In this document: positions 15,136 to 36,135 of the stretch, in pieces
Layout: each line of letters opens with the position of its first letter
Numbering within the stretch: the first letter of the stretch is position 1
NCBI GenBank assembly: GCA_028715175.1
Contig: JAQUSJ010000001.1
Coordinates: 276,550 to 340,549, forward strand
Source: Candidatus Daviesbacteria bacterium
Lineage (GTDB): Bacteria; Patescibacteriota; Microgenomatia; Daviesbacterales; UBA10151
DNA length: 64,000 nt
Reading direction: 5' to 3'
Translations under genes and position numbers: made by a program
Notes under the pieces: generated by a model
The model's input: the letters and a program-made list of their open reading frames with translations, nothing else
Databases searched by the model: none
Told to the model about the DNA's origin: nothing

Positions 15136-15141
15136 GGCTCA

Positions 15142-17206: not shown

Positions 17207-17254
17207 ATAGTCTATCTTAACTATAAATTGACTATTTGTCTACCCCGAATTTAT

Positions 17255-18328: not shown

Positions 18329-18358
18329 GGGGAAATTATAGCAGTTTCATGCTAGAAT

Positions 18359-18667: not shown

Positions 18668-18698
18668 TTGGATTCCCGCTTTCGCGGGAATGACAATC
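18668..18698 (+). promoter_or_regulatory. Conserved leader hairpin motif, copy 2: stem TTCCCGC / GCGGGAA (7 bp, 5 GC pairs), loop TTTC, followed by TGACAA
   Basis: Paralogous to 7175-7205. Lies directly after the tsaB stop and upstream of the likely true start (ATG 18717) of the CAP-domain gene. Confidence 0.4.
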
Positions 18699-19589: not shown

Positions 19590-19737
19590 TACTAAAAATT
19601 TTGGGGATAGGCATACTAATATACCTTATCTGGGCAATATTACACCATAAGCGTGACAAGAGTTTGACTTTGCCCATTTTCTTAGAGTATCTTTTAACTG
19701 CGATCTTGAGTTTGATATTATTTGCAGGAGTGACTTA

Positions 19738-20823
19738 TTGATGAAAGCAATTATACCAACAGGTGGCCGTGGTACCAGAATGCGGCCATTAACTTTTTCT
19801 ACTAATAAGCATTTTATTCCGATTGCAAACAAACCGTTAATTTTTTACCCGATAGAAAAAATTGCAGATACAGGTATTAAAGACATTGCGATTACTTATA
19901 ATTTGGGCGGGTTAGATGAAGTGCAGACGATATTGGGAGATGGCAGCAAATGGGGTTTAAAATTCACATATATTTTGCAGGAGAAACCTTTAGGCCTTGC
20001 CAATATCGTAGAAGTTTGTGAGGATTTTCTTGCAGGCAGTCCTTTTTTATTTCATCTGGGAGACAATATTTTTGTAGACGGTATAAGACAAGCATTTGAT
20101 TATTTTGTAAAGAAAAAACCCAATGGGCTTGTTACGATGCTCCACCATCCTGAAAACAGAAGGATGGGAGTGCCTTTCTTTGATAAACAAAATAAATTAT
20201 TAAAATATGTAGAAAAGCCGGAAAATCCTCCACACGATTTCGCAATTCCTGGTTTGTATTTTGCAGATTCAAATTTCTTTAAATGTTTCAAGGGGCAAGA
20301 CAGGATTAAACCATCAGCTAGAGGGGAATTTGAAATTCCGTCTGCATTTCAATGGATGATTGATCATGGGTTTAATGTGGAGGTTATTGAATACAGCGGC
20401 AAATGGTTGGATCCTGGTAAATTTGATGATTGGCTGGATGCAAATGAATATCTTCTGAATCGCGATCTACAGGTAAACACAGAAAGTAAGATTGATCCGA
20501 CTTCCAGAATCGAAGGAAAGGTTTCAATAGGCGAGCATGCCGAGATACGAAGGTCTAAACTTAACGGTCCTGTCATAATAGGAGATAATGTTATAATAGA
20601 AAACTCGGAAATTGGCCCCTTTGCCTCGATAGGAAACGATTGCGAAATTTTAAATAGCAAAATAAAAAGGAGTGTTTTGATGGATGGAGTGAGAGTGAGC
20701 GGAGTCGCAAATCACCCGATTGAAGATAGTTTAATAGGGACAGATAGCGAAATTGCCGGAGCAGATGGTAGAAGTGCAAAAACCAGCCTTTTTGTTGGGG
20801 AAAAGTGTAAAATACAAATATGA
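19738..20823 (+). CDS. rfbA: Glucose-1-phosphate thymidylyltransferase-like sugar nucleotidyltransferase with C-terminal left-handed beta-helix extension
   Basis: N-terminal MKAIIPTGGRGTRMRPLT (RmlA G-x-G-T-R). C-terminal ~100 aa of hexapeptide repeats (IGEHAEI, IGDNVII, IGPFASIG, IGTDSEIAG). Stop overlaps the rfbB start. Confidence 0.8.
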   Translation: MMKAIIPTGGRGTRMRPLTFSTNKHFIPIANKPLIFYPIEKIADTGIKDIAITYNLGGLDEVQTILGDGSKWGLKFTYILQEKPLGLANIVEVCEDFLAGSPFLFHLGDNIFVDGIRQAFDYFVKKKPNGLVTMLHHPENRRMGVPFFDKQNKLLKYVEKPENPPHDFAIPGLYFADSNFFKCFKGQDRIKPSARGEFEIPSAFQWMIDHGFNVEVIEYSGKWLDPGKFDDWLDANEYLLNRDLQVNTESKIDPTSRIEGKVSIGEHAEIRRSKLNGPVIIGDNVIIENSEIGPFASIGNDCEILNSKIKRSVLMDGVRVSGVANHPIEDSLIGTDSEIAGADGRSAKTSLFVGEKCKIQI

Positions 20824-21830
20824 TTCTTCTGGTTACTGGAGGAGCCGGTTTTATCGGTTCAAACTTCATTCATTATTGGTTAAAGAATCATGCAGATGAT
20901 CGGATTGTTAATCTGGATACTTTAACTTATGCAGGCCATTTAGAAAGCCTCAAAGATATATCAGATAATCCTAATTATCAATTTATAAAAGGAGATATTA
21001 CAAACCCCGAAGATGTAAAAAGGGCAATGGATGGAGTGGATATTATTGTTCACTTTGCCGCGGAATCTCATGTTGATAGATCCATAGTTGATCCGCTTAC
21101 TTTTGTTCGAACTAATGTATTGGGAACAGCGCTGCTTTTAAATACGGCATTAGATTTGGGAGTTAAAAGATTTCATCATGTCTCAACAGATGAGGTTTAT
21201 GGAGAGCTTGGACCAGATGACCCTCCTTTTACAGAAGAGACCCTTTATGCTCCGCGTACCCCTTATGCTGCATCAAAAGCAGGTTCTGATCATTTGGTCA
21301 GAGCTTATTTTGAAACCTATGGTTTGCCTATTACAATTTCAAATTGTGCAAATAACTACGGCTTCTTTCATGATCCGGAAAAGTTAATTCCCAGATTTAT
21401 AACTAATTTACTAGAAGGAAAAAAGGTGCCTTTGATGGGAAAAGGGGAAAATATCAGGGAATGGCTGCATGTAGAGGATCATGCTTCGGCAATAGATTTT
21501 GTTTTACAAAAAGGAGAAATTGGGGAAACATATTTAATTGAAGGTGAGGAAAAAACTAATATGGAAATAACAAAAATGCTGCTTGAGATTTTAGGTTTGG
21601 ATGAATCAATGATTGAATTTGTGGGTCATCGGTTAGGACATGATTTCCGTTACGCTATAAATGGTGAAAAACTCCGGAGCTTAGGCTGGGAAAGAAAGCA
21701 TTCTCTTGCAGAAGATCTGTCTAAAGTAGTCTTATGGTATAAGACTAATGAATGGTGGTGGAAACCTCTAAAAGAGGGGAGGCCAAACATTGATCGCAAT
21801 GCACAAAAATCTTATAAGCAAAGCTTGTAA
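20820..21830 (+). CDS. rfbB: dTDP-glucose 4,6-dehydratase
   Basis: MILLVTGGAGFIGSNF, HFAAESHVDRS and YAASKAGSDHLV (YxxxK), as in RmlB. 336 aa. Confidence 0.9.
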   Translation: MILLVTGGAGFIGSNFIHYWLKNHADDRIVNLDTLTYAGHLESLKDISDNPNYQFIKGDITNPEDVKRAMDGVDIIVHFAAESHVDRSIVDPLTFVRTNVLGTALLLNTALDLGVKRFHHVSTDEVYGELGPDDPPFTEETLYAPRTPYAASKAGSDHLVRAYFETYGLPITISNCANNYGFFHDPEKLIPRFITNLLEGKKVPLMGKGENIREWLHVEDHASAIDFVLQKGEIGETYLIEGEEKTNMEITKMLLEILGLDESMIEFVGHRLGHDFRYAINGEKLRSLGWERKHSLAEDLSKVVLWYKTNEWWWKPLKEGRPNIDRNAQKSYKQSL

Positions 21831-21864
21831 ATTTTGTTTGCAAGCTGCGCTTACAAACTTGTTT

Positions 21865-22416
21865 ATGGACCATAAACTTATTAAAGCAACATCAATCCCA
21901 GGACTGTTAGTATTGGAAAGACCAATACTTACGGACGAACGGGGATTTTTTAGAGAAATTTTCCATATTGATGAAATAGAAGAAACTTTGAATATTGAGT
22001 TTAAAGGCTTACAAATGAATCATGCTCATTCTAAACCTTCGGTAATGCGGGGAATTCATGCAGAAAATTGGAATAAGATAATTTATCCGGTTAATGGACA
22101 AGTTTTCGTGGCGATTGTTGATATTAGAGCAGATTCCTCAACTTTTGGTAAGATGGAAACATTTACAATCAACGATCAAAACAGGATTGCCTTATTTGTT
22201 TCCAAAGGTTTGGCTAATTCTTATTGTATTACCGGCAGTACACCAGTGGACTACATCTACCTAGTTGATGCTTATTACGATGGTTCAGATACCAGGGCAA
22301 TTGCCTGGGATGATCCTGATTTAAATATAAATTGGCCGATTAAAAATCCTATTATCTCCGAGAGGGATAAAAATAATCCGACACTGCGGGATCTATTTCC
22401 CGAAAAATTCAAATGA
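21865..22416 (+). CDS. rfbC: dTDP-4-dehydrorhamnose 3,5-epimerase (start chosen at MDHKLIKATS; the ORF track extends to 21790)
   Basis: IPGLLVLERPILTDERGFFREIF and RGIHAENWNKIIYPVNG, as in the RmlC cupin. 183 aa from this start. Confidence 0.8.
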   Translation: MDHKLIKATSIPGLLVLERPILTDERGFFREIFHIDEIEETLNIEFKGLQMNHAHSKPSVMRGIHAENWNKIIYPVNGQVFVAIVDIRADSSTFGKMETFTINDQNRIALFVSKGLANSYCITGSTPVDYIYLVDAYYDGSDTRAIAWDDPDLNINWPIKNPIISERDKNNPTLRDLFPEKFK

Positions 22417-23321
22417 TGAATTCAAAAGTATTAATCTTTGGGGGAAACGGTTTGGTAGGATCAAAATTTATCCAGATACATTCTCGGGCTTTTGAAATAA
22501 AAGCCCCTCTTGTTTCAGAGATAGATATATTAAATAAAGATCAACTTTTAAAATTTGCTCAAGATTTTGCGCCGGATACAATCATTAATTTTGCAGCATA
22601 TACTCAAGTTGAAAGCGCCGAAGCCCAAAAAGGAGATAAAGGCGGAATTTGTTATCAAATAAATGCGGTCGGAGCAAAAAATGTGGCGGATGTATGCAAG
22701 GAAATGGGAAAGAAATTGATACATATTTCAACGGAATATGTATTTGACGGAACAAAAGCGGAGAGTCCTTATACAGAAGAAGATAAGCCAAATCCAATCA
22801 ATTGGTATGGGCAGACCAAGTATGCAGGGGAGCAATTTGTTTTCGAAAGCGGTTGCGCTGCAACCATAGCTAGAATTTGTATGCCGTTTAGTCCTTTTTA
22901 TGAACTCAAAACAGATGTTGCCAGATTTTTCCTCAAGGAGTTGCAGAATGGCAGGAGAGTAAAAGCGATTGAAAATCAGCGAGTCACGCCGACTTATGTG
23001 AACTATATTGTTAATGCTTTGAAGGTGTTAGTTGAATCGCAGACAGAAGGACTTTATCATATTAGTAGTACGGATAGTGTAACTCCACAAGAGTTTGCCA
23101 AAACCATTGCCGAAATTTTTCAATTAAACTATTTTCTGATTTCTCCGATCAGTCTTGATGAATATAACAAAAGTAAGACTGTTAAACTCCTGCAGTATTC
23201 CTGGTTAAATCCCGCAAAATTCGAGGAGCAGTTCGGAGAAGGAGTGTTGCATACTGTTGAAGAAGGATTAACGCTTTTCAAAAAAGAGATTGACGAGAAA
23301 GGGGAAAATCGGCTATATTAA
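22413..23321 (+). CDS. rfbD: dTDP-4-dehydrorhamnose reductase
   Basis: VLIFGGNGLVGSKF Rossmann start; YGQTKYAGEQ (YxxxK); ~300 aa, typical of RmlD. Start overlaps the rfbC stop (ATGA). Confidence 0.8.
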   Translation: MMNSKVLIFGGNGLVGSKFIQIHSRAFEIKAPLVSEIDILNKDQLLKFAQDFAPDTIINFAAYTQVESAEAQKGDKGGICYQINAVGAKNVADVCKEMGKKLIHISTEYVFDGTKAESPYTEEDKPNPINWYGQTKYAGEQFVFESGCAATIARICMPFSPFYELKTDVARFFLKELQNGRRVKAIENQRVTPTYVNYIVNALKVLVESQTEGLYHISSTDSVTPQEFAKTIAEIFQLNYFLISPISLDEYNKSKTVKLLQYSWLNPAKFEEQFGEGVLHTVEEGLTLFKKEIDEKGENRLY

Positions 23322-23370
23322 GCATAGTTAATATTTGGTTAATATTTCTAAATAAGACAGAAACAAAAAT

Positions 23371-24387
23371 ATGGCAGATAAAAAAAGAGCTTTTATAACA
23401 GGAATTTCGGGACAAGACGGTTCATACTTAAGCGAGTTCTTATTAGATAAGGGTTATGAGGTAGCAGGTTTAGTCCGCAGGAATGCGGTTTTGGACTTGG
23501 GTAATATTAATGAATTAAAAGATGAAGTAAAAATCTATTATGGAGATTTGCATTCACCCGAATCTATTGCGCTAGCTCTGTATGATTTTAAACCAAATGA
23601 AATATATAATTTGGCTTCTCTTTCTTCTCCGCTTGGATCATTTAGCGATAAACTGGGAGCGATTATGGTTACAGGAGTAGGTGCTCTTAATGTTTTTGAA
23701 AGAGCTAAACAGGTTGTTCCTGATGCTAAAATTTATCAAGCATCAACGTCTGAGATGTTTGGTGCACCAAAGCAGGTTCCTCAGGATGAAAATACCCCTT
23801 TTAATCCTGCTAATCCCTATGCAGCAGCCAAAGAATTTGCACATAGGATGGCTGTGATTGCAAGGAATGATAAAAAAGAACCCCAATTTATTTCCTGCGG
23901 AATCCTTTTCAATCATGAAAGCCCCAGACGCGGTTTAAACTTTGTGACAAGAAAAATCACTGTTGCCGTAGCCTGTATCAAGAACGGCAAGAGGGAAGGA
24001 ATACCTTTAAATGAGATAGGCGAACCGATTATAAAAAATGGAAAAGTAAAATTGGGAGATTTGGATGCCAAGAGAGATTGGGGTTATGCTCCTGATTATG
24101 TGGAGTTAATGTGGATGATGTTGCAACAAGATCAGGCAGATGACTTTGTAGCTGCAACAGGAGAAACGCATACGGTTGGAGAGTTTGCCGAAGAAGCTTT
24201 TGCCGTTGTCGGTTTAAATTGGAAAGACTATGTTGAAATTGATCCGCATTTTATACCTCCGCTGCAAACCGGGCCGTTGTGCGGGAATGCTGCAAAAGCC
24301 AAAGAAGTTTTAGGGTGGGAACCAAAGACAAAATTTAAGGATCTGGTCAAAATTATGGTTCATGCAGACCTTGCTAAATTCTCCTAG
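23371..24387 (+). CDS. gmd: GDP-mannose 4,6-dehydratase
   Basis: AFITGISGQDGSYLSEFLLDKGYEVAGLVRR, ASTSEMFG and YAAAKEFAH, as in Gmd. 338 aa. Confidence 0.85.
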   Translation: MADKKRAFITGISGQDGSYLSEFLLDKGYEVAGLVRRNAVLDLGNINELKDEVKIYYGDLHSPESIALALYDFKPNEIYNLASLSSPLGSFSDKLGAIMVTGVGALNVFERAKQVVPDAKIYQASTSEMFGAPKQVPQDENTPFNPANPYAAAKEFAHRMAVIARNDKKEPQFISCGILFNHESPRRGLNFVTRKITVAVACIKNGKREGIPLNEIGEPIIKNGKVKLGDLDAKRDWGYAPDYVELMWMMLQQDQADDFVAATGETHTVGEFAEEAFAVVGLNWKDYVEIDPHFIPPLQTGPLCGNAAKAKEVLGWEPKTKFKDLVKIMVHADLAKFS

Positions 24388-25594
24388 TTTCCGCTACAAT
24401 CGATCCATGTTAAAAATAGTTTCCGTTGTTCTCCCTACTTATAACGAAAAAGCAAATATCGAAAAAACGGTTGAGAAGGTTTTTGAACAAGAAAAAAATC
24501 TTCCTGGCTTTGAGATAAATGTTGTAATTGCAGACGATATCAGGTCTTCTGATGGAACAGAACAGATTGCAAAAGAATTAACGAAGAAGAACAAAAGAGT
24601 GCATTTTATAAAGGTAGAACCGGGTTTGGGTGTCGGATTAATAAAAGGTCATCAATATGCTTTGGATAATTTGCACCCCAGTATTCTGGCTCAACTTGAT
24701 GCAGACGGACAGGTTGAACCTGACGTACTGGTAAGGCTTGTCGGTGCGATAGAAGATGGTTATTCGCTGGCAATCGGCTCCAGATTTGTCAGCGGAGGGA
24801 AAAATAAGCTCTCTTTCATAAGAAGACTTTTTACTTATGGGGCATCAGCCTTTTTCCGAATAATGGTAGGCCCATGTGATATTAAAGAAGTTACGAATTC
24901 TGCAAGAGCATTGACCCCTGCTTTGTTTAAGAAGATTAATTTAGAAAAATTGCCATGGAGAGAGCAAACCTTTATTGTTCAACCGGCTTTCTTGCATGAG
25001 GCAATTTTGGCTGGCGCCACATATAAAGAAGTACCCTTAGTTTTTAAAAATCGTTTGGAAGGATATTCTAAGAATAAAGTTTTTAACTATACATATGATG
25101 TTATTACTTATTGTATTGATGCAAGTTTAAATAAGCTGGGAATTCATGTTAGATTTTTCTATATAACTCGCCGGATCAAGACACTGGTAAAGTTTAGTTT
25201 AGTCGGGTTTGTCGGAACAATGGTAGATTTCTTATTCTATAAAATATTTATTAATTTTTTCTTATTAACCCCGGCAATGTCTAAAGGTTTTTCTGCCGAA
25301 ATTGCTATTGTGAATAATTTTATACTTAATAATTATTGGACATTCCGCTATCGGAAAACAAAAACAAACATTTGGCAAAAATTTGGTATTTTTAACTTGG
25401 TGAGTTTTGGTGGACTCTTGATTGGAGTGTTGATTGTTAAATTTTTACATATGACTTATGGTGACGGATTTGTTTATCCTTTCGGTCGTCACGTTGCTTA
25501 CAATAATTTTTATTTTTTTGCTACCATTCCACCAGTCATGCTTTGGAATTTTTTAATTAACCATCTCGTGACTTGGCGTAACCAGGAGGACTAG
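24362..25594 (+). CDS. GT2 polyprenyl-phosphate sugar synthase (Dpm1/GtrB-like) with C-terminal GtrA-like 4-TM membrane domain
   Basis: VVLPTYNEKANIEKTV..VVIADD...D-x-D (GT2 DxD). C-terminal FSLVGFVGTMVDFLFYKIF...NNFILNNYWTFR matches the GtrA family. Confidence 0.75.
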   Translation: MQTLLNSPSFRYNRSMLKIVSVVLPTYNEKANIEKTVEKVFEQEKNLPGFEINVVIADDIRSSDGTEQIAKELTKKNKRVHFIKVEPGLGVGLIKGHQYALDNLHPSILAQLDADGQVEPDVLVRLVGAIEDGYSLAIGSRFVSGGKNKLSFIRRLFTYGASAFFRIMVGPCDIKEVTNSARALTPALFKKINLEKLPWREQTFIVQPAFLHEAILAGATYKEVPLVFKNRLEGYSKNKVFNYTYDVITYCIDASLNKLGIHVRFFYITRRIKTLVKFSLVGFVGTMVDFLFYKIFINFFLLTPAMSKGFSAEIAIVNNFILNNYWTFRYRKTKTNIWQKFGIFNLVSFGGLLIGVLIVKFLHMTYGDGFVYPFGRHVAYNNFYFFATIPPVMLWNFLINHLVTWRNQED

Positions 25595-26760
25595 TTAAAC
25601 AATTCTAGGTTGGGGATGGGAGCGGTGTTTTGAAGTATAAAATTTTGGGCATAGAGATAAATTGCTAGTAGTATTATAGGTAGGATTATTTTAAACTCAC
25701 GGCTTGTTAAAATTTTTTCAAATGCAATTAACACAAACGGCACAATAGGCAGCAAGTATCTGCTGATATCCCTGTGGGATACAAAGGTACTGGCCGTAAG
25801 ATAAGTTAAAACAAAAAAAGCTAAAGGATAAAGTTTTTGTTTTAATAACATTAGCCCTCCTAAAAATCCTAATGTAAATATATAGACAATGTCTTCTAAC
25901 CACATACTTCCTACCCAAAACTCATTTTTATTAAAAACTTTGAAAGGAGGAAAGCTAAGGTGAATATTATCTCCGCTGTGAAAGTAAGCAAAAAAATCAT
26001 GGTAGGCAGTGGAGTATAAATAGAAAACACCAAGAAGCGTTAGCGGGATGAGGAGCAGAGGAGAGTAGGAGATGATGCTGGAGATTGTGCGACGAAGGAG
26101 ATTGCTCCCTTTTTGGGTAATAATTTTCCAGGTAAGATAAAAAATTAAAGCTAAAAACAGCAATATCCCGGGCGGTCTGGTTAATTGCGCCAACATCCCA
26201 AAAATTCCTGCTGATAAAATAAATAGAGGGCGCGGAGACAGCTCAAACCGTAGAAAAAAATAAAGTGCAGTAGTGACAAAGAAAATAAAAACCGGTTCTG
26301 CCGACCCGACGCTATGAACAATTAACCACCGGGCGGGCAAAATCAAAAAAATAAAAGATAAAAAAAGCGGATGATCGGTTAATTTAAAATCATTTACTAA
26401 TAAGTAAAAAATTATCACAGAAAAACAAGTAAAAATTAGGGAAACAAAAATCATTGATTTTAAAAAGCCTAATAGTGGTGAAAATAATAAAATAAGTAAA
26501 GCATAGCCGGGGAAATGGGCAGCGTAATAGTTGGCGGAAAGCGTTTGGGGCAAGTTTGCGATAATTGTGGGGTTGTAAAACGATTTAGCGATAATTACGT
26601 ACTCTAAACCGTCGAAGTTTCGGTAAATAGTAGAAAATCCTTCTTTAAAGCTTAGTCCCCAAAAGTTTGGCAGTGCTAAAATGTGAGGCAACCAAACAAA
26701 TATGGTAACGATAATTGTAAGGAACGTGAGGATAATGCAATCTTTGACGGATTTTGACAT
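25591..26760 (-). CDS. Polytopic integral membrane protein, possible GT-C-like transferase (DUF2029/PIG-V-like topology)
   Basis: 389 aa, ~11 TM helices. YYAAHFPGYALLILLF loop resembles PIG-V/DUF2029-type mannosyltransferases. Stop overlaps the preceding + strand gene end. Confidence 0.4.
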   Translation of the reverse strand: MSKSVKDCIILTFLTIIVTIFVWLPHILALPNFWGLSFKEGFSTIYRNFDGLEYVIIAKSFYNPTIIANLPQTLSANYYAAHFPGYALLILLFSPLLGFLKSMIFVSLIFTCFSVIIFYLLVNDFKLTDHPLFLSFIFLILPARWLIVHSVGSAEPVFIFFVTTALYFFLRFELSPRPLFILSAGIFGMLAQLTRPPGILLFLALIFYLTWKIITQKGSNLLRRTISSIISYSPLLLIPLTLLGVFYLYSTAYHDFFAYFHSGDNIHLSFPPFKVFNKNEFWVGSMWLEDIVYIFTLGFLGGLMLLKQKLYPLAFFVLTYLTASTFVSHRDISRYLLPIVPFVLIAFEKILTSREFKIILPIILLAIYLYAQNFILQNTAPIPNLELFN

Positions 26761-26811
26761 ACTTACTTAAATCATAGCAGAAGTTTAAGAGATTATGCTA
26801 CACTTTAATTC

Positions 26812-28983
26812 ATGAATATAGCCGGACTATCAGTCTTTTTTCCTTGCATTAACGAAGAAGGAAGTATTGAACATATTGTGCGTAAAGCAGAACAGGTCCT
26901 GAAAAAATTAAACCTCAAACACGAAATTATTGTTGTTGACGATGGTTCAACCGACCGGACCGGCCAAATTGCAGATAAAATGGCCCGGGAAAATTCTAAT
27001 ATAAGGGTTATCCATCATCTTAAAAATTTAGGTTATGGAGAAGCCTTAAAATCCGGTTTCTACAGCGCAAAATATGACATTATTGTTTATACCGACGGAG
27101 ACGGTCAGTTTGATTTTTCGGAAGTGGAAAAGTTTTTGGAAAAAATCCGGTACAATGACGCGATTTTCGGGTATAGAATAAAGCGGAAAGACCCGTTTTT
27201 TAGAATACTTTTTAAAAAAGGTTGGAAGCTGTCGCTTTTAACTTTCTTTGGTTTGACTCTAAAAGACGTGGACTGCGGTTTTAAAATGGTTCGAAAAGAA
27301 GTTTTAGAAAAAATACCTCATTTACAATCTTCAAGAGGGGCGATGATAAATGCGGAGCTTGCCATTTTGGTTCAAAAATACGGTTTCAGAATTGCGGAGG
27401 TTGGGGTAAACCATTATCCCAGAATTTCAGGTAAGCCTACAGGAGCAAATTTGAATGTAATTTTCAAGTCCTATATTGATTTATTGCAACTTTGGTGGAA
27501 GTTTAAAGACGCTAAAAGCTTGTTTTTGCTGTTCATCGGGATTTTGATACTTGCGTCTTTTCTGCGTTTTTACAAGCTCGGAGAATATATGACTTTTTTA
27601 GGAGACGAGGGCAGGGATGCCATAGTTATTAAAAATATGCTTATTAATCATCACTTTCCATTGATTGGTCCGCCTACCTCCGTGGGTAATATTTATTTAG
27701 GTCCGCTTTATTATTATATGATGGCTCTCCCTATGCTGATTTTTTCTCTTAGTCCGGTGTCAGCTGCCGGAATGAATGCTTTTTTTGGTGTAATGAGTGT
27801 AATCTTTATTTATTATCTTGGTAAAAGCTGGTTTAACCGGCAGGCGGCTCTCCTGGCAGCCTATTTATATGCCATTTCTCCCGTAACAATTATCTACTCC
27901 AGGTCTTCATGGAACCCTAATCCGGCCCCGTTTTTTGCCCTAAGTTCAATATTTAGTTTGTATAAGCTATTTAAGACAGGTAACTTTTTGTGGCTTATTT
28001 TAACCGGTCTCTCGGTTGGAGCGGCTTTGCAGATGCATTATCTTGCTGTGATTTTAATACCTGTTGTGGTCGTCCTCTGGTTTTATGAAATTTTCAGAAG
28101 GCGTTACAAAAAGTTAAAAATCGAAAAATTGTTTGGTGGAAGTTTATTAGGGATAGCTTCGTTTTTATTTATCATGTCACCCCTTGTTTGGTTCGATCTC
28201 CGGCATAATTTTTTAAACTATAGAGCTATAACAGAACTTTTTAGTTCCGGCAATGCAATTAAGGCCGATCTTGTTGCAAATATTTTAAAGATACCCTCTC
28301 TTTATTCGTACAATTTAATTGGAAGATATATCGGAGGAGAGAATTCTTATCTAACGGTAATTGTATCTTTATTGGTTATTGTCGCACTGGTATATAGATT
28401 TTCGTACTGGCCTAAACTTGCTTTAGCCGTATGGTTGATAGTGGGTCTTCTCGGGCTTACCTTTTATCAACAGAGTATTTATGATCATTATTTGGGGTTT
28501 TTAAATCCTGTTCCGTTTTTGCTTTTAGGGTCCCTAGCTTCAATCCGTATTCCTAAACGGAAGGTGGTAAGATGGTTTATGGTTTCTGTCCTGGTGGTGT
28601 TGACGGTATTTCTAACAATAGTCAACTTTCAAAAAAATCCTCTGCGCAATCCGCCAAATAATCAACTGAAAAGAACTCAAGAAATAGCAAAGTTTATTAT
28701 CAGTCAGGCAAATGGTAAAGATTTTAATTTTGCCTTAATTGCTGAAAGAAATTATGATTCGGCATACCAATTTTATCTTGATATATATGGTCATAAGCCA
28801 AAACAAGTGCCTTTTGATATAACAGAAGAACTATTTGTTGTCTGCGAAGATTCTACATGTGACCCAACTCACAGTGCAAAGTATGAAATTGCCGCCTTTG
28901 GCTGGTCAAAAATTGAATGGATGCAAAATCTTTACGGGGTAAAGATATATAAATTAGTACACAACCCGTCAGGGAAACCATGA
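26812..28983 (+). CDS. Fusion protein: N-terminal GT2 Dpm1-like polyprenyl-phosphate glycosyltransferase + C-terminal ArnT-like GT-C (subfamily A) membrane transferase
   Basis: aa 1-230: LSVFFPCINEEGSIEHIV..VVDDGSTDRT..YTDGDGQFD (GT2). aa ~240-723: LGDEGRDAIVIKNMLINHHFPLIGPPTSVGNIYLGPLYYY.. collinear with 5590-7227 and 9039-10562. 723 aa. Confidence 0.7.
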   Translation: MNIAGLSVFFPCINEEGSIEHIVRKAEQVLKKLNLKHEIIVVDDGSTDRTGQIADKMARENSNIRVIHHLKNLGYGEALKSGFYSAKYDIIVYTDGDGQFDFSEVEKFLEKIRYNDAIFGYRIKRKDPFFRILFKKGWKLSLLTFFGLTLKDVDCGFKMVRKEVLEKIPHLQSSRGAMINAELAILVQKYGFRIAEVGVNHYPRISGKPTGANLNVIFKSYIDLLQLWWKFKDAKSLFLLFIGILILASFLRFYKLGEYMTFLGDEGRDAIVIKNMLINHHFPLIGPPTSVGNIYLGPLYYYMMALPMLIFSLSPVSAAGMNAFFGVMSVIFIYYLGKSWFNRQAALLAAYLYAISPVTIIYSRSSWNPNPAPFFALSSIFSLYKLFKTGNFLWLILTGLSVGAALQMHYLAVILIPVVVVLWFYEIFRRRYKKLKIEKLFGGSLLGIASFLFIMSPLVWFDLRHNFLNYRAITELFSSGNAIKADLVANILKIPSLYSYNLIGRYIGGENSYLTVIVSLLVIVALVYRFSYWPKLALAVWLIVGLLGLTFYQQSIYDHYLGFLNPVPFLLLGSLASIRIPKRKVVRWFMVSVLVVLTVFLTIVNFQKNPLRNPPNNQLKRTQEIAKFIISQANGKDFNFALIAERNYDSAYQFYLDIYGHKPKQVPFDITEELFVVCEDSTCDPTHSAKYEIAAFGWSKIEWMQNLYGVKIYKLVHNPSGKP

Positions 28984-29720
28984 AAAAACTATCAGTTGTT
29001 ATCCCTTCCTATAATGAAGCAGTTAATTTAAAAAAAGGAGTCTTGAGTGATGTAGAAAGTTCTCTACAAGAGTTAAAAGTTGATTATGAGGTGATTATAG
29101 TAGATGACGGTTCCTCGGACGATTCGGTAGATCTGATTAAAAAATATATTTCTCAAAATGAAGATTTTAAGCTGATTCAAAACCCTCATGGAGGAAAAGC
29201 AAATGCTGTGATGACAGGGATGCTGGAAGCTAAAAGTGAAATAGTGCTTTTTACGGATATGGATCAGGCGACTCCCATCAGTCAAGTTGAAAAATTTCTC
29301 CCTAAATTTGAGAGAGGTTTTGATATTGTGATTGGATCCCGTCGCGGAAGAAAGGGAGCGCCTTTAATCCGAAAATTATCGGCATGGGGATTTTCCGTAC
29401 TACGCGGAATAATCTTGGGTCTGCCTTTTAAAGATACGCAGTGCGGTTTTAAGGCTTTTAATAAAGGGTCGGTTTTAAAAATTATTCCCAAAATTAAAAA
29501 CGAATGGGGAGTGGTGCATTTTAAAGGCGGAGCAGTAAATGCGGGATTTGATGTTGAGGTTTTGTATTTGGCCAAAAAATACGGATTTAAGATAGCGGAA
29601 GTTGAGGTGGAATGGAAATATGTAGATACAGAAAGGGTACAGATTATAAAAGATGCTATGGCAGCCGTATATGATATGTTTCGAATCAGATGGAATGATT
29701 TAGCAGGGAAGTACCAGTAG
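28980..29720 (+). CDS. GT2 Dpm1-like glycosyltransferase (soluble, 246 aa)
   Basis: LSVVIPSYNEAVNL..IIVDDGSSDDS..FTDMDQATP and QCGFKAF (GT2_DPM-like motifs). Confidence 0.75.
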   Translation: MKKLSVVIPSYNEAVNLKKGVLSDVESSLQELKVDYEVIIVDDGSSDDSVDLIKKYISQNEDFKLIQNPHGGKANAVMTGMLEAKSEIVLFTDMDQATPISQVEKFLPKFERGFDIVIGSRRGRKGAPLIRKLSAWGFSVLRGIILGLPFKDTQCGFKAFNKGSVLKIIPKIKNEWGVVHFKGGAVNAGFDVEVLYLAKKYGFKIAEVEVEWKYVDTERVQIIKDAMAAVYDMFRIRWNDLAGKYQ

Positions 29721-29748
29721 ACAATTTAAACGGGTAAGTTGGTATAAT
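29718..29748 (+). promoter_or_regulatory. Promoter candidate with extended -10 (TGgTATAAT) immediately upstream of the ArnT-like gene
   Basis: TAGACA 29718-29723, 19-nt spacer, TG 29740-29741, TATAAT 29743-29748. The GTG start at 29755 is only 7 nt downstream (possible leaderless or very short leader). Confidence 0.35.
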
Positions 29749-29754
29749 GTTAAG

Positions 29755-31278
29755 GTGGATTTTTTAGTTAAACGTCGCAGAGGAATTTTAATCCTCATTG
29801 CCTTAATTGCTGTGTATTTTATTCTTAGACTGCCGAATTTGACTTTGCAGCCTATCTTTGCAGATGAGGCGATTTATATCAGATGGGCGCAAGTGATGAG
29901 AGCTGAATCAACCCTGCGTTTTCTGCCTTTATCCGATGGGAAAACCCCGCTTTTTATGTGGGCTATGATTCCTCTTTTCAAATTTATCCACGATCCGCTT
30001 CTGGCAGGAAGAGTTCTTTCTGTGATCTCCGGTTTTTTTACTTTGCTTGGGGTATTTTTCCTATCCAGGAAAATCTATAATACACGGACCGCATTTTGGG
30101 CAAGTTTATTGTATGTGATTACTCCTTATACTGTATTTTTTGACCGGATGGCTCTGGTTGATTCAATGCTGGCTGCTTTTACTGTCTGGTCGGTTTATTT
30201 TGCCGTCTGGCTGGTAAGTAGTTTGAGATTAGATATTGCCATGATCTTAGGTTATTTGTTGGGAGGTGGTATCTTAACAAAAACACCGGGTATGTTTAAT
30301 CTGCTTGTATTGCCTATAACAATAATAGGATTTATTAGAAGAAAGGGAGGAAAAAATGCGCTGATTAAGTTAATAGCCTTATGGGGTGTTGCGATCGGAA
30401 TTGCGCTGGCTATGTATAACATGTTGCGACTCGGGCCAAATTTTCAAATGTTATCTTCAAGGAATATGGATTATATTTTTTCTCCAATGGAGTTAATCGG
30501 CAGACCCTTGGACCCGTTCATCCCCCATTTCAATGATATCGCCGATTGGTTCCCCAAACTTCTAACCTGGCCAATTTTATTTTGTGTTGTGATGGGAATG
30601 ATTTACATAATATACATGATATGGCAACAAATGTTCCGCGGGCCGTCTTTGTTGGGAGGGATAATTTTGCTTTGGGCGCTCATTCCGTTGCTTTTGAATA
30701 TGGCATTTTTGCGAACTTTTACTGCCCGTTATCTTTTTCCTTCGATTCCATTATTTTTGGTGATAGCCGGATTTGGAGCAACAAAAATACTACCGAGGCT
30801 TGCATATATAAGACGCTTCCCTATTCTTCTGATGTTGATAGTTCTTTTGCCTCTTCCATTATATTTTGATTTTTTCTTATTAACTTCGCCCGGGAAGGTG
30901 CCGCTTCCCAAGGAGGAGAGAAAGGGGTATTTTGAAGATTGGACTTCCGGGTATGGATTTTCCGATATCGCAAAGTTTCTTTTGGAGAAAAGTAGAGATA
31001 AAAAGGTTGTTCTTGGAACAGCCGGTTCTTTCGGAACATTGCCTGACGGGATTCAAATTTATCTTGATAAATCAAAAATATCAATAGTAACCAGCAGCGC
31101 TACTATTTCGGCGCAGGTCAGAAATGCCGCAAAAGATAACCTTACCTACTTTATTGGAAACAAACGGGATTTGGAAGGCAGCGCCAGCGATATTGTGCTG
31201 ATAAAAGAATACCCAAAATTGAAGCCATTAGATAATTCCTTGCAAGATGCTACAGTTTTATATCAAGTGCTGCCTTAA
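29755..31278 (+). CDS. ArnT-like GT-C glycosyltransferase (GT83-type motif)
   Basis: First extracytoplasmic loop PIFADEAIYIRWAQVMRAE matches the ArnT 'DExRYxExxxxM' motif. RVLSVISGFFTLLGVFFL and ITPYTVFFDRM follow the second ArnT motif. 507 aa, polytopic. Confidence 0.7.
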   Translation: MDFLVKRRRGILILIALIAVYFILRLPNLTLQPIFADEAIYIRWAQVMRAESTLRFLPLSDGKTPLFMWAMIPLFKFIHDPLLAGRVLSVISGFFTLLGVFFLSRKIYNTRTAFWASLLYVITPYTVFFDRMALVDSMLAAFTVWSVYFAVWLVSSLRLDIAMILGYLLGGGILTKTPGMFNLLVLPITIIGFIRRKGGKNALIKLIALWGVAIGIALAMYNMLRLGPNFQMLSSRNMDYIFSPMELIGRPLDPFIPHFNDIADWFPKLLTWPILFCVVMGMIYIIYMIWQQMFRGPSLLGGIILLWALIPLLLNMAFLRTFTARYLFPSIPLFLVIAGFGATKILPRLAYIRRFPILLMLIVLLPLPLYFDFFLLTSPGKVPLPKEERKGYFEDWTSGYGFSDIAKFLLEKSRDKKVVLGTAGSFGTLPDGIQIYLDKSKISIVTSSATISAQVRNAAKDNLTYFIGNKRDLEGSASDIVLIKEYPKLKPLDNSLQDATVLYQVLP

Positions 31279-31290
31279 TCTTTAAAATTT

Positions 31291-32952
31291 ATGAAAAAAG
31301 CCTTAGTGATTTTTTTCTTTTTAAGTTTTATAACCCTTCCGACTATTTTGCCCTTTTTGTCACTCAAATTTTTTTATACCCAGGATTATATTTTTATAGC
31401 CAGACTGCAACAGATGAGTTCAGCGCTATTTTCCGGCCAATTTCCTGTCAGATGGGTGCCGGATTTAAGATACGGCGAACCTCTTTTTAATTTTTATGCG
31501 CCCCTGCCCTATTACTTGGGGGCAATAATTAAACTGACAGGATTAAATTTTATCTGGGTTGCAAAAATATTATTTATATCCAGCAGTATTTTATCGGCTG
31601 TGACAATGTATATCTTATGTCGCAAACTCTTTAATCGCAAAGCTGCAATCTTAGCGGTTTTTCTTTATACTTATGCTCCTTACAGGGCAGTTGATATTTA
31701 TGTCCGGGGAGCATTATCAGAAGCTTGGGCTTTTGTATTTTTCCCGCTGATTTTTTATGCCTCTCTGCTTTTATCTGAAAAATCGAGCATAAAGAGGATT
31801 TTACTTCTTGTTTTTTCTTTAGCAGGATTATTTTTAACTCATAATGTTGCAACTTTAATGTTTTTACCGTCCCTTTTTTTGTGGTGGATATATCTTGTAT
31901 TAACAAAAAGAAACTGGAAATTAATTTTCCCTAATTTAACCGCTTTAGGTTTAAGTTTAGGCTTAGCCGCATTTTTCCTGCTTCCGGCTTTATTAGAACG
32001 GCAATTTATTCAAACAAAATATTTGATAGTCGGTTATTTTGATTTTCGTGCTCATTTTGTGGCTTTCTCTCAATTTTTTTCAACATTTTGGGGATACGGA
32101 TCCTCGCTTTGGGGACGAGATGATGGTTTATCATTCCAGATAGGACTTATTCACTGGGCCGTTCTTGCATTGGCTTTATTTTTAGGACTCTTCCTTATAA
32201 GGAATAAGCACAATTTCGTTGCCAATAAAAAGTTTTTAATATTTTTGTTATTTCTGGGAGTTAATTTTTTACTCTCTTTATTTTTGCAACATAACAAATC
32301 TGCATTCATCTGGGAAGCAATTCCTGCTATGGCTTTTATTCAATTCCCCTGGAGATTTTTAGCAATCTCAATTTTCTTCGTTGCAATAATTGGCGCAGCA
32401 TTAACAAGTTATTTTCAGGATAAGTTTAAACTGGTATATTTTATTTTGATCATTGCCGTAGTTGTTGCAAACTTTGGATATTTTAGGCCTAAGGAATATG
32501 TTGATGATAGTTTCTTTGATAAATTTTTAAATATAGAGACTATGCGGAAAGGGGTAGATTTGACAAAGGACTATCTACCGATTTGGGTTGCTACTACTGA
32601 TGGTGAAAGGTTCAATACTCCACAAGCAGAAAAGGGTGAAATTACAGTTTCTTCCTTTAAACAAAGTTCAATAAGATTTAATTTTGATGCTAAAGTTTCC
32701 TCAAACGCTTTGATTGACATACCTATTACATATTTCCCCGGTTGGCAAGTTCAAGCAAATAACCAGTTAATCTCTCAAAGCTCTCCTTCGAAAATGGGGC
32801 TTATCAGGTTCGAACTTCCAAAAGGGAGCTATGCAATTAATATTGAGTTCAAAGATACTCCCATAAGAACTATAGGAAATATTATTTCATTTGTTTCGGC
32901 AGTAGCGATTTCGATGTTGTTTCTTTTTAGAAAGAAATATTTAAATGTATAA
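31291..32952 (+). CDS. YfhO-like GT-C family membrane glycosyltransferase
   Basis: FPVRWVPDLRYGEPLFNFYAPLPYY loop; ~13 TM helices; C-terminal extracytoplasmic domain (PITYFPGWQVQANNQ). Paralog of 32945-34654 and 55325-57007. Confidence 0.55.
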   Translation: MKKALVIFFFLSFITLPTILPFLSLKFFYTQDYIFIARLQQMSSALFSGQFPVRWVPDLRYGEPLFNFYAPLPYYLGAIIKLTGLNFIWVAKILFISSSILSAVTMYILCRKLFNRKAAILAVFLYTYAPYRAVDIYVRGALSEAWAFVFFPLIFYASLLLSEKSSIKRILLLVFSLAGLFLTHNVATLMFLPSLFLWWIYLVLTKRNWKLIFPNLTALGLSLGLAAFFLLPALLERQFIQTKYLIVGYFDFRAHFVAFSQFFSTFWGYGSSLWGRDDGLSFQIGLIHWAVLALALFLGLFLIRNKHNFVANKKFLIFLLFLGVNFLLSLFLQHNKSAFIWEAIPAMAFIQFPWRFLAISIFFVAIIGAALTSYFQDKFKLVYFILIIAVVVANFGYFRPKEYVDDSFFDKFLNIETMRKGVDLTKDYLPIWVATTDGERFNTPQAEKGEITVSSFKQSSIRFNFDAKVSSNALIDIPITYFPGWQVQANNQLISQSSPSKMGLIRFELPKGSYAINIEFKDTPIRTIGNIISFVSAVAISMLFLFRKKYLNV

Positions 32953-34654
32953 AATTATTGGTTCACATAAAGAATTTATCATTGGATTGCTGCTGACTTT
33001 GTCTTTGCTCTGGCCGCTTTTCACGGCTCCTTACTTTACCCATCATGATGACGTACAAGTGATTAGAATTTATGAGATGGATAAATGCATTAAAGATCAT
33101 CAAATACCATGCCGGTGGGTGCCGGATTTGGGCGGTTTATACGGCTATCCGATTTTTAACTATTATGCACCCCTGCCTTATTACTTTGGTGAATTGGTTT
33201 ATTTGTTCACTAACAATCTGTTAATTTCGGCAAAGGCAATGTTTATTATCAGTTTTCTGGGATCTTATGTTTTTATGTATCTTTTAGCATCAAAGCTGTG
33301 GGGTAAAAAAGGAGGTTCTCTAGCTGCTGTTTTTTTTGAGTTTGCACCTTACCATGCGCTTGATTTTTACGTCAGGGGAGCGATGGGTGAGTTATGGGGA
33401 TTAATGCTTTTTCCTGCTATCTTTTGGGCTTTGATAAGATTGGAAGAGAAAATAAATATTCTCCGTCTTTTACTGTTGGCAATATCCATTGCTGCGCTCG
33501 TAGTCTCACACAATCTTTCAGCCTTAATCTTTTTGCCACTGGTCTTAATTTGGGCGGCTATAATATTTTTTAGAAGAAAAAATGCCAAATTTTTATGGTT
33601 CTCCTTAGGAGGAATAATTCTTGCTGTGGCTTTATCTTCATTTTATTTATTTCCGGCCTTGTTTGAAAAGAATTTTGTTCATCTTGGAACTACAATTGGA
33701 GGATATTTTTCATATACGGAACATTTTAAGGGATTTAGAAAATTATTCTTGGATAGGTCTTGGGGGTATGATTCATCAATCAGGGAAGTTCCGGGAGGAG
33801 AGAAAGATGGACTTTCTTATCAGATAGGATGGGTACATCTTGCGGGATGGATTTTATCATTGGTTGCGGCAAAGATATTATGGAAAAAGAATAAAAATTT
33901 GAGCATTATAATCGGATTTTCTTCATTTGTGATTTTACTTTCAATTTTTATGATCAATCCAAGATCGGAATTTGTCTGGAAGCTGATTGATCCGTTAAAA
34001 TACCTGCAATTTCCCTGGCGATTTTTGCTGCTTGTGGTATTTTTTATATCATTTGTTTCAGGTAGTATTTTCCTGGCTGATTTCAAGCGCAAAAATGTTT
34101 TGTGGGCATTTTTAATTATTGCGGTTGTTGTTTTTAATTTTTCCTATTTTAGGCCGGCAAAATTTATTAAAACAAATGACGAAAAACGCTTAAGCGGTAA
34201 AGATTGGGATACACAGATAAAGCGTTCAATTTTTGATTATTTGCCTATTTATGCAAAAGAACCGCCGGCAGAACTTGCTACTTCAAGGTACCAAATTTTA
34301 ACGGGCGACAGTCGGATTTTTGATTTTCAAGAGGGGACAAATTGGATTACTTTTAAAACGCAAACGCAGACACACACAATTATCCGCTTATCGCAGTATT
34401 ATTTTCCCGATTGGAAGGTATTTGTAGATCAAAAAGAAGTAAAAGTTGAATATAAAAACAACAGTTTAGGTTTAATGACTATTATCTTGGGTAAAGGCTC
34501 TCATGAAATTACAGCAAGGCTTTATGACACTCAGATTAGATGTCTTTCAAATTTTATCACTTTAATAGGGTTTGCAGTTAGTGCAATATTATTCTTAATT
34601 TCTTTCCAAAGAGTCCGTCGATGGATGTCATATTACAGGAAAAGAATGAATTAA
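32945..34654 (+). CDS. YfhO-like GT-C family membrane glycosyltransferase (paralog)
   Basis: IPCRWVPDLGGLYGYPIFNYYAPLPYYFGE and C-terminal YYFPDWKVFVDQKEV, collinear with 31291-32952. 8-nt start/stop overlap. Confidence 0.55.
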   Translation: MYKIIGSHKEFIIGLLLTLSLLWPLFTAPYFTHHDDVQVIRIYEMDKCIKDHQIPCRWVPDLGGLYGYPIFNYYAPLPYYFGELVYLFTNNLLISAKAMFIISFLGSYVFMYLLASKLWGKKGGSLAAVFFEFAPYHALDFYVRGAMGELWGLMLFPAIFWALIRLEEKINILRLLLLAISIAALVVSHNLSALIFLPLVLIWAAIIFFRRKNAKFLWFSLGGIILAVALSSFYLFPALFEKNFVHLGTTIGGYFSYTEHFKGFRKLFLDRSWGYDSSIREVPGGEKDGLSYQIGWVHLAGWILSLVAAKILWKKNKNLSIIIGFSSFVILLSIFMINPRSEFVWKLIDPLKYLQFPWRFLLLVVFFISFVSGSIFLADFKRKNVLWAFLIIAVVVFNFSYFRPAKFIKTNDEKRLSGKDWDTQIKRSIFDYLPIYAKEPPAELATSRYQILTGDSRIFDFQEGTNWITFKTQTQTHTIIRLSQYYFPDWKVFVDQKEVKVEYKNNSLGLMTIILGKGSHEITARLYDTQIRCLSNFITLIGFAVSAILFLISFQRVRRWMSYYRKRMN

Positions 34655-36135
34655 AGACTATGGATGAAAGCGTTGAACAGATTGATCCGACTAAAGAGCT
34701 GACTACGGAAATTATTAAAACGCGAGCTGTTAAAGGCGCCGCAATTTTGACTGGAAGAATGGTTCTAATGCAGGGAATATCCTTTTTTTCAATGGCTCTT
34801 TTGACAGCCTTTCTTTCCCCGGCAGAATTCGGGGTTTATTTTGTCGTGTCGGCAGTTAAGAATTTCCTGGCTTATTTTGGCGATATTGGTTTTGCTCCGG
34901 CTTTAATCCAGAAACAAGAGAAGCCAACCGATCTTGAATTAAAAACTATATTTACTGCCCAACAGCTGCTTATTTTAATATTATTGGGAATAGGTTTTCT
35001 GCTTACTTTTTTAATACAAAATATTTATAATTTAAATCAGGCAGCAATTTATTTATTTTGGGCACTTCTTTTTTCTTTGTTTTTTTCATCGTTAAAAACG
35101 ATTCCTACTGTTTTACTGGAGAGAAAGTTAGAATTTAATAAATGGGTAATTCCGCAAATCATTGAAAATATAATTTTTAATTTAACAGCCGTAACTTTGG
35201 CCTGGAAAGGATTCGGAGTCACAAGCTATACTGTTGCCGTACTTTTATCCGGTTTCATAGGTCTTTTCGTTACATATATAGTTCAGCCCTGGCTTCCCGG
35301 AATTGCATTTTCGGTTAAATCTTTTAAGTCAATATTAAAGTTTGGCATCCCCTATCAAGCAAATACACTTCTTGCGATGGTGAAAGATGACGGTATGACG
35401 CTTTTTTTAGGAGGGGTATTAGGTCCTTCCGGTGTCGGATTTTTGGGGTGGGCTCAGAAATGGGCTTATGCGCCACTCCGGTTTTTTATGGATCAGGTAA
35501 TCAAGGTGACTTTTCCGGCTTTTTCAAGATTGCAGGATAACAGAAAAGACTTGTCAGACTTAGTTTCGAAGTCTATTTTTTTCATCTGTATTTTGGTTTT
35601 TCCATCTCTCGTGATGCTGGTTCTGGTGACACCCAGTTTAGTGCAGGTAATACCAAAGTATATTAAATGGAGTCCTGCCGTTTTTGCGCTTTCGGTTTTA
35701 ACAATAAATTCCGGTTTGGCAGCAATAACCACTCCATTGACGAATACTCTGAATGCTATCGGCAAAATAACTCTGACTTTTAAGTTGATGATTATGTGGA
35801 CTATATTAACTTGGATTTTTGTTCCAGCGCTTGCTGTGCTTTATGGGGTTAATGGCGCAGCCGTAGGGTTTGCTATTGTCGGATTAAGCTCTGTTATAGC
35901 TTTATATCTGGTTTCAAAACATGTTGATATAAACTATTTGCAAAGTGTTGGAAAACCGGTTCTCGCGTCAATTTTCATGGGAATTTGCGTATTTATTATC
36001 AGTAGTCTTTTTTCCGTGTCTTGGCAGCAGATAATAGGTATGGTTGTTGCAGGTTTGATTTCCTATTCTTTGACTATTTTTATGCTTGAACCAAAGCTGC
36101 CGCTTTTAATTAAAAATCAATTCAGAAGAAAATAA
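34621..36135 (+). CDS. Wzx-like oligosaccharide flippase (MOP/polysaccharide biosynthesis protein family)
   Basis: 504 aa, ~14 TM helices. N-terminal KGAAILTGRMVLMQGISFFSMALLTAFLSPAEFGVYFVV pattern of Wzx/PST flippases. Confidence 0.65.
   Translation: MDVILQEKNELKTMDESVEQIDPTKELTTEIIKTRAVKGAAILTGRMVLMQGISFFSMALLTAFLSPAEFGVYFVVSAVKNFLAYFGDIGFAPALIQKQEKPTDLELKTIFTAQQLLILILLGIGFLLTFLIQNIYNLNQAAIYLFWALLFSLFFSSLKTIPTVLLERKLEFNKWVIPQIIENIIFNLTAVTLAWKGFGVTSYTVAVLLSGFIGLFVTYIVQPWLPGIAFSVKSFKSILKFGIPYQANTLLAMVKDDGMTLFLGGVLGPSGVGFLGWAQKWAYAPLRFFMDQVIKVTFPAFSRLQDNRKDLSDLVSKSIFFICILVFPSLVMLVLVTPSLVQVIPKYIKWSPAVFALSVLTINSGLAAITTPLTNTLNAIGKITLTFKLMIMWTILTWIFVPALAVLYGVNGAAVGFAIVGLSSVIALYLVSKHVDINYLQSVGKPVLASIFMGICVFIISSLFSVSWQQIIGMVVAGLISYSLTIFMLEPKLPLLIKNQFRRK

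Follow-up and report, generated by a model that had tools for sequence, protein, structure and literature searches.

A polyprenyl-phosphate-sugar synthase-type GT2 fused to an ArnT/PMT-like GT-C in Candidatus Daviesbacteria

Within a 64,000-nucleotide (nt) stretch of Candidatus Daviesbacteria DNA (assembly GCA_028715175.1, contig JAQUSJ010000001.1, positions 276,550 to 340,549; hereafter the window, whose own numbering is used throughout), one gene at 26812..28983 encodes, as a single polypeptide of 723 amino acids (aa), a GT2 glycosyltransferase of the kind that makes polyprenyl-phosphate sugars, an amphipathic linker helix, a polytopic GT-C transferase and a C-terminal soluble domain. The gene and all of its parts described below lie on the plus strand. 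Daviesbacteria belong to the Microgenomates group of the Patescibacteria. The fusion is a genuine gene, recurrent in evolution, common in databases and built from well-known parts, and the explanation that best accounts for the evidence jointly is that it probably encodes a bifunctional membrane glycosyltransferase, a GT2 synthase anchored to its cognate GT-C. It amounts to a familiar two-enzyme module in fused form and reveals no new enzyme class.

An ATG-to-stop open reading frame (ORF) coincides exactly with 26812..28983, and its product matches PF00535 Glycos_transf_2 at aa 7–168 (E 2.3e-26; 93 bits against a cutoff of 23.3), PF13231 PMT_2 at aa 298–451 (E 4.7e-13; 50 bits against 26.1) and PF02366 PMT (E 5e-11), all exceeding the curated Pfam cutoffs and far beyond chance. 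AlphaFold2 (AF2) models the protein with a mean predicted local distance difference test score (pLDDT) of 86.2 and a predicted TM-score (pTM) of 0.79, and an identical protein is present in NCBI, encoded on a 744-kb contig of a metagenome-assembled genome (MAG), under the annotation 'glycosyltransferase [Candidatus Daviesbacteria bacterium]'. A preliminary description of the window had proposed this fusion, with a boundary near aa 230, and had advised that the assembly be checked around 27450–27550. A Logan contig (L081) from run SRR22315506 is identical to the window for 2797 nt, the 723-aa product included; possibly built from the same reads as the MAG, it represents an independent assembler, not an independent sample. 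The junction region 27450–27590 has zero homopolymers of six or more bases, and its other two frames are full of stops, in a window that is AT-rich (30–41% GC). The single polypeptide is moreover conserved: more than 120 protein clusters at the 90% identity level, 707–740 aa long and all with both Pfam domains, cover 100% of the query at 63–77% identity.

How the two halves are arranged elsewhere emerged from a scan of one genome per GTDB species, which returned 80 loci. In 36 of these a single uninterrupted ORF spans query residues ~1–723; in 37 the GT2 and GT-C are adjacent separate genes, in the same order, on the same strand and with the same break point; the remainder are truncated by contig ends, one possibly being frameshifted. 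The split GT2s (~233–250 aa, 42–66% identical to aa 1–232) stop directly after the amphipathic helix (...LWWK[I/L]R*), and the split GT-C genes (~500–560 aa, 36–55% identical to aa ~235–720) begin M..WIKKN... immediately ahead of the first transmembrane (TM) segment, TM1. Their stop and start codons share an ATGA overlap or lie 1–40 nt apart, an arrangement that reads as a signature of translational coupling. The question whether the halves are always separate genes in homologs, raised as a possible refutation, has a mixed answer, with roughly half of the orthologous loci split and roughly half fused, a balance that argues for a functional pair and not against fusion.

Neighbour-joining placed 74 versions, fused and split, on one tree, in which the fused state is scattered among the split. 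The clade that contains the window protein is entirely fused and comprises ~28 Daviesbacteria-like genomes; distant from it lies a second clade of fused versions only (L036, L042, L053, L054, L057 from Amesbacteria, and L071), with a different linker, ~11 residues longer; and isolated fused members lie amid split ones (L027, L062, L023 together with L034, and L024). Because fused and split versions interleave on the tree and their linkers differ, these sequences indicate several fusion or fission events. Representatives at 50% identity comprise several fused clusters (33–64% identity), many free GT-Cs (35–58%) and free GT2s (47–59%), and an upstream gene of ~400 aa encoding GT2–GtrA and a downstream free GT2 of ~250 aa are common to many fused and split loci. 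Some of the database titles in this set are suspect: MAGs titled 'uncultured Gammaproteobacteria/Pseudomonadales bacterium ... binchicken' (L002, L009, L010, L012, L014 and others) carry loci 60–72% identical to, and syntenic with, those of Daviesbacteria, so these titles look like placeholder or wrong taxonomy and were not used as taxonomic evidence; the titles of L037 ('Clostridia bacterium') and L049 ('Alphaproteobacteria bacterium') are likewise doubtful.

The N-terminal half is a complete GT2 domain with the GT-A fold (aa ~4–212; 26821..27447), and the earlier assignment of the first ~230 residues to the polyprenyl-phosphate-sugar synthase type is borne out by its closest relatives of known structure. 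A family profile searched against the PDB places ArnC (9hwj, 3e-20), GtrB (5ekp, 2e-19) and Pyrococcus DPMS (PfDPMS; 5mlz, 2e-18) at the top, with polyprenyl-phosphate glycosyltransferases alone in that position and other GT2s at 1e-10 or worse. Foldseek with the AF2 model likewise ranks ArnC, GtrB and DPMS first (E ~1e-12 to 1e-10, TM-score on target 0.56–0.66), with ArnC 9asc at E 2.4e-12 and 0.63–0.66. The best partial matches in NCBIfam are ArnC, AglJ, PgfS, a Dol-P-hexose (dolichyl-phosphate-hexose) transferase and PpgS, every NCBIfam match lying far below its equivalog cutoff.

Residue roles in PfDPMS have been assigned to the DxD motif, to R117 and R131, which bind the phosphate of Dol-P, and to Ser135, which positions the acceptor phosphate; the DAD form of the motif and Ser135 are DPMS signatures (PMC5526996). 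In the fused protein the predicted metal- and diphosphate-binding DxDxQ motif, D95-G-D97-G-Q99 (27094..27108), aligns with 89-DADLQ-93 of PfDPMS and with DADLQ of ArnC, and D95, D97 and Q99 are invariant in 35 homologs. R122 and R131 (27175..27204), invariant in the same set, align with R117 and R131 of PfDPMS as candidate phosphate-binding arginines. The putative acceptor loop (A-loop), R204-ISGKPTG-211 (27421..27444), aligns with the ERxFGxSK loop of ArnC, with R204, G207, T210 and G211 invariant; R204 is presumably equivalent to R202 of PfDPMS. The motif, however, is DGD instead of DAD, and a lysine occupies the position of Ser135. The label 'Dpm1-like' therefore stands at the superfamily level but not for DPMS proper: judged by these comparisons the GT2 is a putative synthase of the ArnC/GtrB/DPMS type and not a bona fide Dpm1, and because of the same two substitutions we do not name its sugar.

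Where GtrB and ArnC have two C-terminal TM helices of their own and PfDPMS has four, the GT2 of the fused protein has none: by hydropathy and in the AF2 model the domain stops at an amphipathic helix, beyond which hydrophobic sequence resumes only with TM1 of the GT-C. Two interface helices are predicted, at aa 129–146 and 214–231, of which the second is amphipathic and conserved. This second helix coincides with the fusion junction (aa 214–233, NVIFKSYIDLLQLWWKFKDA; 27451..27510) and in the AF2 model continues directly into TM1 (aa ~235–253), placing the domain boundary where it had first been drawn, with the GT2 and its helix ending at ~aa 231–233 and the GT-C starting from ~aa 235. Across 35 aligned homologs W228 and W229 are invariant and L224, L227, L231, K232, K235 and F238 are conserved at 90% or above; it is at this same aa 214–233 junction that the alignment locates the stop codon of the GT2 and the start codon of the GT-C in the split orthologs.

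The remainder of the protein is, as first described, a complete GT-C, recognized by Pfam, fold comparison, profile searches and hydropathy in a polytopic membrane domain at aa ~235–610 (27514..28641). ArnT is its best global fold match (5f15; Foldseek E 9e-9, TM-score on target 0.60, 592 aligned columns), followed by AglB (7e9s, 4e-9), STT3 (8pn9 and 7oci) and Pmt4 (9i5k); ArnT/PMT/STT3-like enzymes are said to form GT-C subfamily A, a grouping attributed to Alexander and Locher in 2023. With a profile of the fused family, no solved sequence relative of this half was found in the PDB, and a deeper profile that included unfused relatives recovered only yeast Pmt1 (6p25, 4e-5), Pmt4 and Pmt2, over ~140 residues. 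A 40-sequence profile did not match ArnT chains even at E values up to 10, and no ArnT model was among the NCBIfam matches; the half is therefore not ArnT (GT83) proper, the likeness being one of fold only. Nor does it correspond to PMT (GT39) proper: although it has a DE motif and no solved sequence relative ranks above Pmt1, Pfam found no MIR domain in the protein. On these sequence comparisons we class it as a PMT_2-family, ArnT/PMT-like GT-C that is neither an ArnT nor a PMT orthologue.

This half has an acidic, predicted catalytic motif in the first extracytoplasmic loop, L263-G-D265-E266-G-R268-D269-A270 (27598..27621), in which D265-E266 is placed 10 residues past TM1, where GT-C enzymes have their catalytic acidic residues. 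D265, G267, R268 and D269 are invariant in the fused homologs and E266 is conserved at 90% or above, and the four invariant residues are likewise invariant in 39 unfused GT-C relatives (D33, G35, R36 and D37 of A2). Residues 240–430 also resemble, weakly and below threshold, the TIGR03663 model, 'flippase activity-associated protein Agl23' (36 bits; cutoff 126). Beyond the membrane domain lies an alpha/beta soluble domain (aa 612–723; 28645..28980), delimited by AF2 secondary structure and containing the invariant cysteines C678 and C683; by analogy with the periplasmic domain of ArnT it would be extracytoplasmic and face the acceptor.

The two activities are familiar from three-component glycosylation, in which a GT2 makes a polyprenyl-phosphate (polyprenyl-P) sugar cytoplasmically and, once the product has been flipped, a GT-C attaches the sugar to an external acceptor (PMC8035078, PMC5836110, PMC11127046). 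GtrA/GtrB/GtrC of enterobacterial phages, CsbB/GtcA/YfhO, GacI/GacJ/GacK/GacL and ArnC/ArnE-F/ArnT have the same two activities and folds encoded side by side; the window protein, by contrast, is one polypeptide, and its GT2 is without the pair of TM helices seen in GtrB and ArnC. No GtrA domain was found in it by Pfam, a GtrA_DPMS_TM domain occurring only in the neighbouring 24362..25594 protein. ArnC and ArnT of Salmonella and Cupriavidus (9asc/9bhc/9hwj and 5f15/5ezm), which the two halves match best in structure, are separate proteins. The window GT-C has no ArnT match detectable by sequence, and the sugar (L-Ara4FN) and acceptor (lipid A) of ArnT should not be assumed for it.

Closer in arrangement is mycobacterial Ppm1, which is a fused D1–D2 protein in M. 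tuberculosis (Rv2051c) and is represented in M. smegmatis by adjacent, interacting Ppm2 and Ppm1 (PMC3485146). Here too, a polyprenyl-P-sugar synthase that has no TM helices and its polytopic partner are one protein in some species and the products of adjacent genes in others. The membrane domain of Ppm1, however, is not a GT-C, does not consume the product and precedes the synthase, whereas in the window protein the synthase comes first and its partner is the presumed consumer. Pfam found no CN-hydrolase domain in the window protein, whose membrane half is a PMT_2 GT-C and not of the Lnt/CN-hydrolase type of Ppm1; the preliminary description, too, had judged the two arrangements to be of different kinds. 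In the WpsA/WpsB system the GT2 has C-terminal amphipathic helices, has no TM segment and depends on a membrane partner; an engineered WpsB–WpsA fusion is active, and natural GacJ–GacI fusions exist in Geobacter, Desulfuromonas and others (PMC10821137). The WpsB/GacJ partner is nonetheless small and non-catalytic, with three TM helices, and in those fusions it precedes the GT2, unlike in the window protein.

Fusions of GT2 and GT-C extend well beyond this family. The order GT2 then PMT_2 also occurs in Candidatus Beckwithbacteria (PIS09412.1), candidate division WS2 (P0326), Novipirellula sp. SH528 (Planctomycetota, P0370), Paractinoplanes ferrugineus (Actinomycetota, P0379) and a Tara Oceans protein; the first four share the domain order of the window protein but are 30–40% identical to it or less, belong to other sub-families and are 770–1030 aa long. 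There is in addition a family of ~1020–1055-aa versions with long C-terminal extensions, as well as a protein with the reverse order, GT-C then GT2 (P0224, 673 aa), and GT2 is fused to other GT-C-type families: YfhO PF09586, the GT87-like PF09594 and TMEM260-like PF11028 (P0295, P0309, P0310, P0302). Fusions of GT2 and GT-C occur in Chloroflexota as well. Three-part proteins add a GtrA module, either as GT2–GtrA–GT-C (the P0239 family, ~923 aa, nine clusters, 47–85% identity; P0239/P0278, locus L082 6001..8769) or as GtrA–GT2–GT-C–YkcB_C (P0341 and P0347, ~1015–1175 aa, one annotated as Ktedonobacteraceae); such single polypeptides with all three components may be more remarkable than the two-part fusion.

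Because independent fusions involve several GT-C families, the reverse order and three-part GtrA versions, they show that selection for joining GT2 and GT-C functions is recurrent. Database names for the fusions are generic ('glycosyltransferase', 'hypothetical protein', 'putative CsbB', 'family 39 protein'), and we found neither a description of a natural GT2–GT-C fusion nor a functional study of these database proteins in the open-access literature. The suspicion that the architecture might be new thus survives only in that sense: no paper describing it came to light there, while in public databases it is abundant over several phyla.

Almost the whole of the 64 kb is an envelope-glycosylation island with an extraordinary density of GT-Cs. 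Seventeen ORFs, within 1664..61847, match PF13231 PMT_2 (starts at 1664, 9039, 10564, 25591 on the minus strand, 26812, 29755, 31291, 39620, 41241, 42175, 47386, 49687, 51351, 52952, 57025, 58686 and 60216), the matches at 9039 and 25591 being weak and under the Pfam cutoff. Three ORFs match PF10131 PTPS_related (31291, which also matches PMT_2, 32945, and 55325 on the minus strand), and most of the GT-C-type ORFs of the window have a 'DE' motif near residue 35. Several candidate lipid-sugar synthases are encoded as well. One, at 24362..25594 (plus strand), fuses a GT2 to a four-TM domain of GtrA/DPMS type (PF00535 and PF04138), as in Pyrococcus DPMS; read from the listed ATG, this gene overlaps the preceding one by 26 nt, and the true start may be an internal methionine (MLKIVSVV...). 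Another, a free, TM-less GT2 of 246 aa (28980..29720, plus strand), overlaps the stop codon of the fused gene and is followed by a free PMT_2 GT-C of 507 aa with an ADE motif at aa ~37 (29755..31278, plus strand); together these two are an unfused synthase/transferase pair. The free GT2 is a conserved partner that follows the fused or split genes in nearly all loci. Recent tandem duplication or fusion of this adjoining pair was considered as the origin of the fused gene and rejected: identity between the free GT2 and the N-terminal half is only 36%, and the free GT-C scarcely resembles the C-terminal half (26% over 68 aa).

Farther along lies a gene for a Wzx-like flippase (34621..36135); between it and more GT-Cs sits that of a 1162-aa protein with ~14 predicted TM segments (36135..39623, plus strand), which has no Pfam match at E<=0.001. 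A 310-aa PMT_2-type ORF (41241..42173, plus strand) overlaps the end of the GT-C gene at 39620..41248 and may be a truncated or split GT-C paralog. Upstream of the fused gene are rmlA-like (19738..20823), rmlB-like (20820..21830), rmlC (21790..22416) and rmlD (22413..23321) genes and a gene of the GDP-mannose 4,6-dehydratase family (23371..24387), and directly upstream of these sugar-nucleotide genes is one whose product has a CAP (cysteine-rich secretory protein) domain and two predicted TM or signal segments (18690..19589, plus strand). The sugar-nucleotide genes (19738..24387) suggest rhamnose or 6-deoxyhexose glycans; a sugar for the fused GT2 was considered on this basis, but nothing ties the rmlABCD- and GDP-mannose-dehydratase-like genes to that domain and no assignment was made.

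If the fused protein is the bifunctional enzyme that we favour, its N-terminal GT2 would work at the cytoplasmic face, moving a sugar from a nucleotide sugar onto polyprenyl phosphate in the manner of ArnC, GtrB and DPMS, and the active site of its GT-C, including D265-E266, would face the cell exterior and pass the sugar from the polyprenyl-phosphate-sugar donor to an envelope acceptor, for which protein and polysaccharide are candidates. The fusion would have arisen when two translationally coupled genes lost the ATGA-type stop/start junction that separated them. It would anchor and orient the TM-less synthase at the membrane, set a 1:1 ratio of synthase to GT-C that the split versions may approximate by translational coupling, and keep donor production beside the cognate transferase, a proximity that would matter when ~17 PMT_2-type GT-Cs and several candidate synthases are encoded in this window alone. 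Some other factor most likely flips the lipid-linked sugar; at the least, the sequence does not account for this step.

Several points weigh against this scheme. Both enzyme activities are predicted from sequence; use by the GT-C of the product of its own GT2 is deduced from the genes being fused or adjacent; and what fusion would bring is something that we infer. The departures of the GT2 from bona fide DPMS, with DGD and a lysine at the Ser135 position, mean that its acceptor-phosphate chemistry may differ in detail. The AF2 model yields no usable inter-domain geometry, and the neighbour-joining tree has no support values, its number of fusion and fission events being approximate.

Among the alternatives, the one that fares best casts the GT-C-like half mainly as a membrane anchor or activator of the synthase, whose product would be used by other GT-Cs of the island, the fused GT-C itself being inactive or using a different donor. 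TM-less polyprenyl-P GT2s do need membrane partners that are not necessarily consumers (PMC3485146, PMC10821137), as with Ppm2/D1, DPM3 and GacJ/WpsB, and ~17 alternative GT-C-type genes are at hand in the window. We nevertheless consider this unlikely: fused and unfused relatives alike keep the D-E-G-R-D loop motif and many other GT-C residues invariant, which would be unexpected for a mere anchor, and GT2 has been fused independently to several different GT-C families.

A bolder possibility is that the polypeptide is self-sufficient, its own membrane domain conveying the lipid-linked sugar, through it or along it, from the cytoplasmic GT2 site to the outer GT-C site with no separate flippase. 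In such a self-contained machine the GT-C domain, or a groove between the GT2 interface helices and TM1, would also translocate the polyprenyl-phosphate sugar, coupling synthesis, flipping and transfer. The direct connection of helix to TM1 is compatible with this, as is the weak Agl23 match of the N-terminal GT-C region (a lead only), and the presence of a GtrA module in the same polypeptide in other lineages points to selection for gathering all steps. That addition of GtrA elsewhere equally suggests that flipping needs a dedicated module, however; the fused protein has no GtrA or other flippase-type domain, its two active sites would lie on opposite sides of the membrane, and a GtrA-domain protein (24362..25594) and a Wzx-like flippase (34621..36135) are encoded nearby. 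Direct channelling across the membrane, as the preliminary description had envisaged, is accordingly not upheld, and we regard both it and the self-contained machine as distinctly doubtful.

Still harder to sustain is the idea that the GT2 is an ordinary membrane-associated enzyme that extends a lipid-linked or soluble glycan and makes no polyprenyl-monophosphate sugar, with the GT-C acting in an unrelated step. It would accommodate the NCBIfam matches, all far under their equivalog cutoffs, and the DGD and lysine substitutions; but the best solved relatives, by 8–10 orders of magnitude in E value, are all polyprenyl-P glycosyltransferases, the matches run through the interface-helix and A-loop region (aa 3–218), and the phosphate-binding arginines are conserved, so that we consider it very improbable. 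Finally, although roughly every second orthologous locus is split at exactly the junction position, an assembly or sequencing artefact joining two neighbouring genes can be set aside with near certainty, because the DNA is identical in the contig of an independent assembler, the junction has no homopolymer, and the fused ORF is conserved in more than 120 protein clusters and, with a conserved linker, in ~28 species-level genomes that come from different studies and form a monophyletic clade.

Rosetta-stone fusions give a strong genomic indication of physical cooperation between two proteins. For the enzyme favoured here, a GT2 synthase anchored to its GT-C, fusion argues that synthase and one particular GT-C are a cognate pair and probably a complex, something that is usually only assumed for three-component systems, and it suggests how organisms with many GT-C paralogs match donor supply to the right transferase. 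Single-chain synthase–transferases, together with the three-part GtrA versions, offer convenient material for the structure and biochemistry of donor hand-over and flipping; were the self-contained machine to prove true, it would provide a handle on the long-unresolved membrane crossing of lipid-monophosphate sugars. Identification of the surface glycans of candidate phyla radiation (CPR) bacteria may also be helped.

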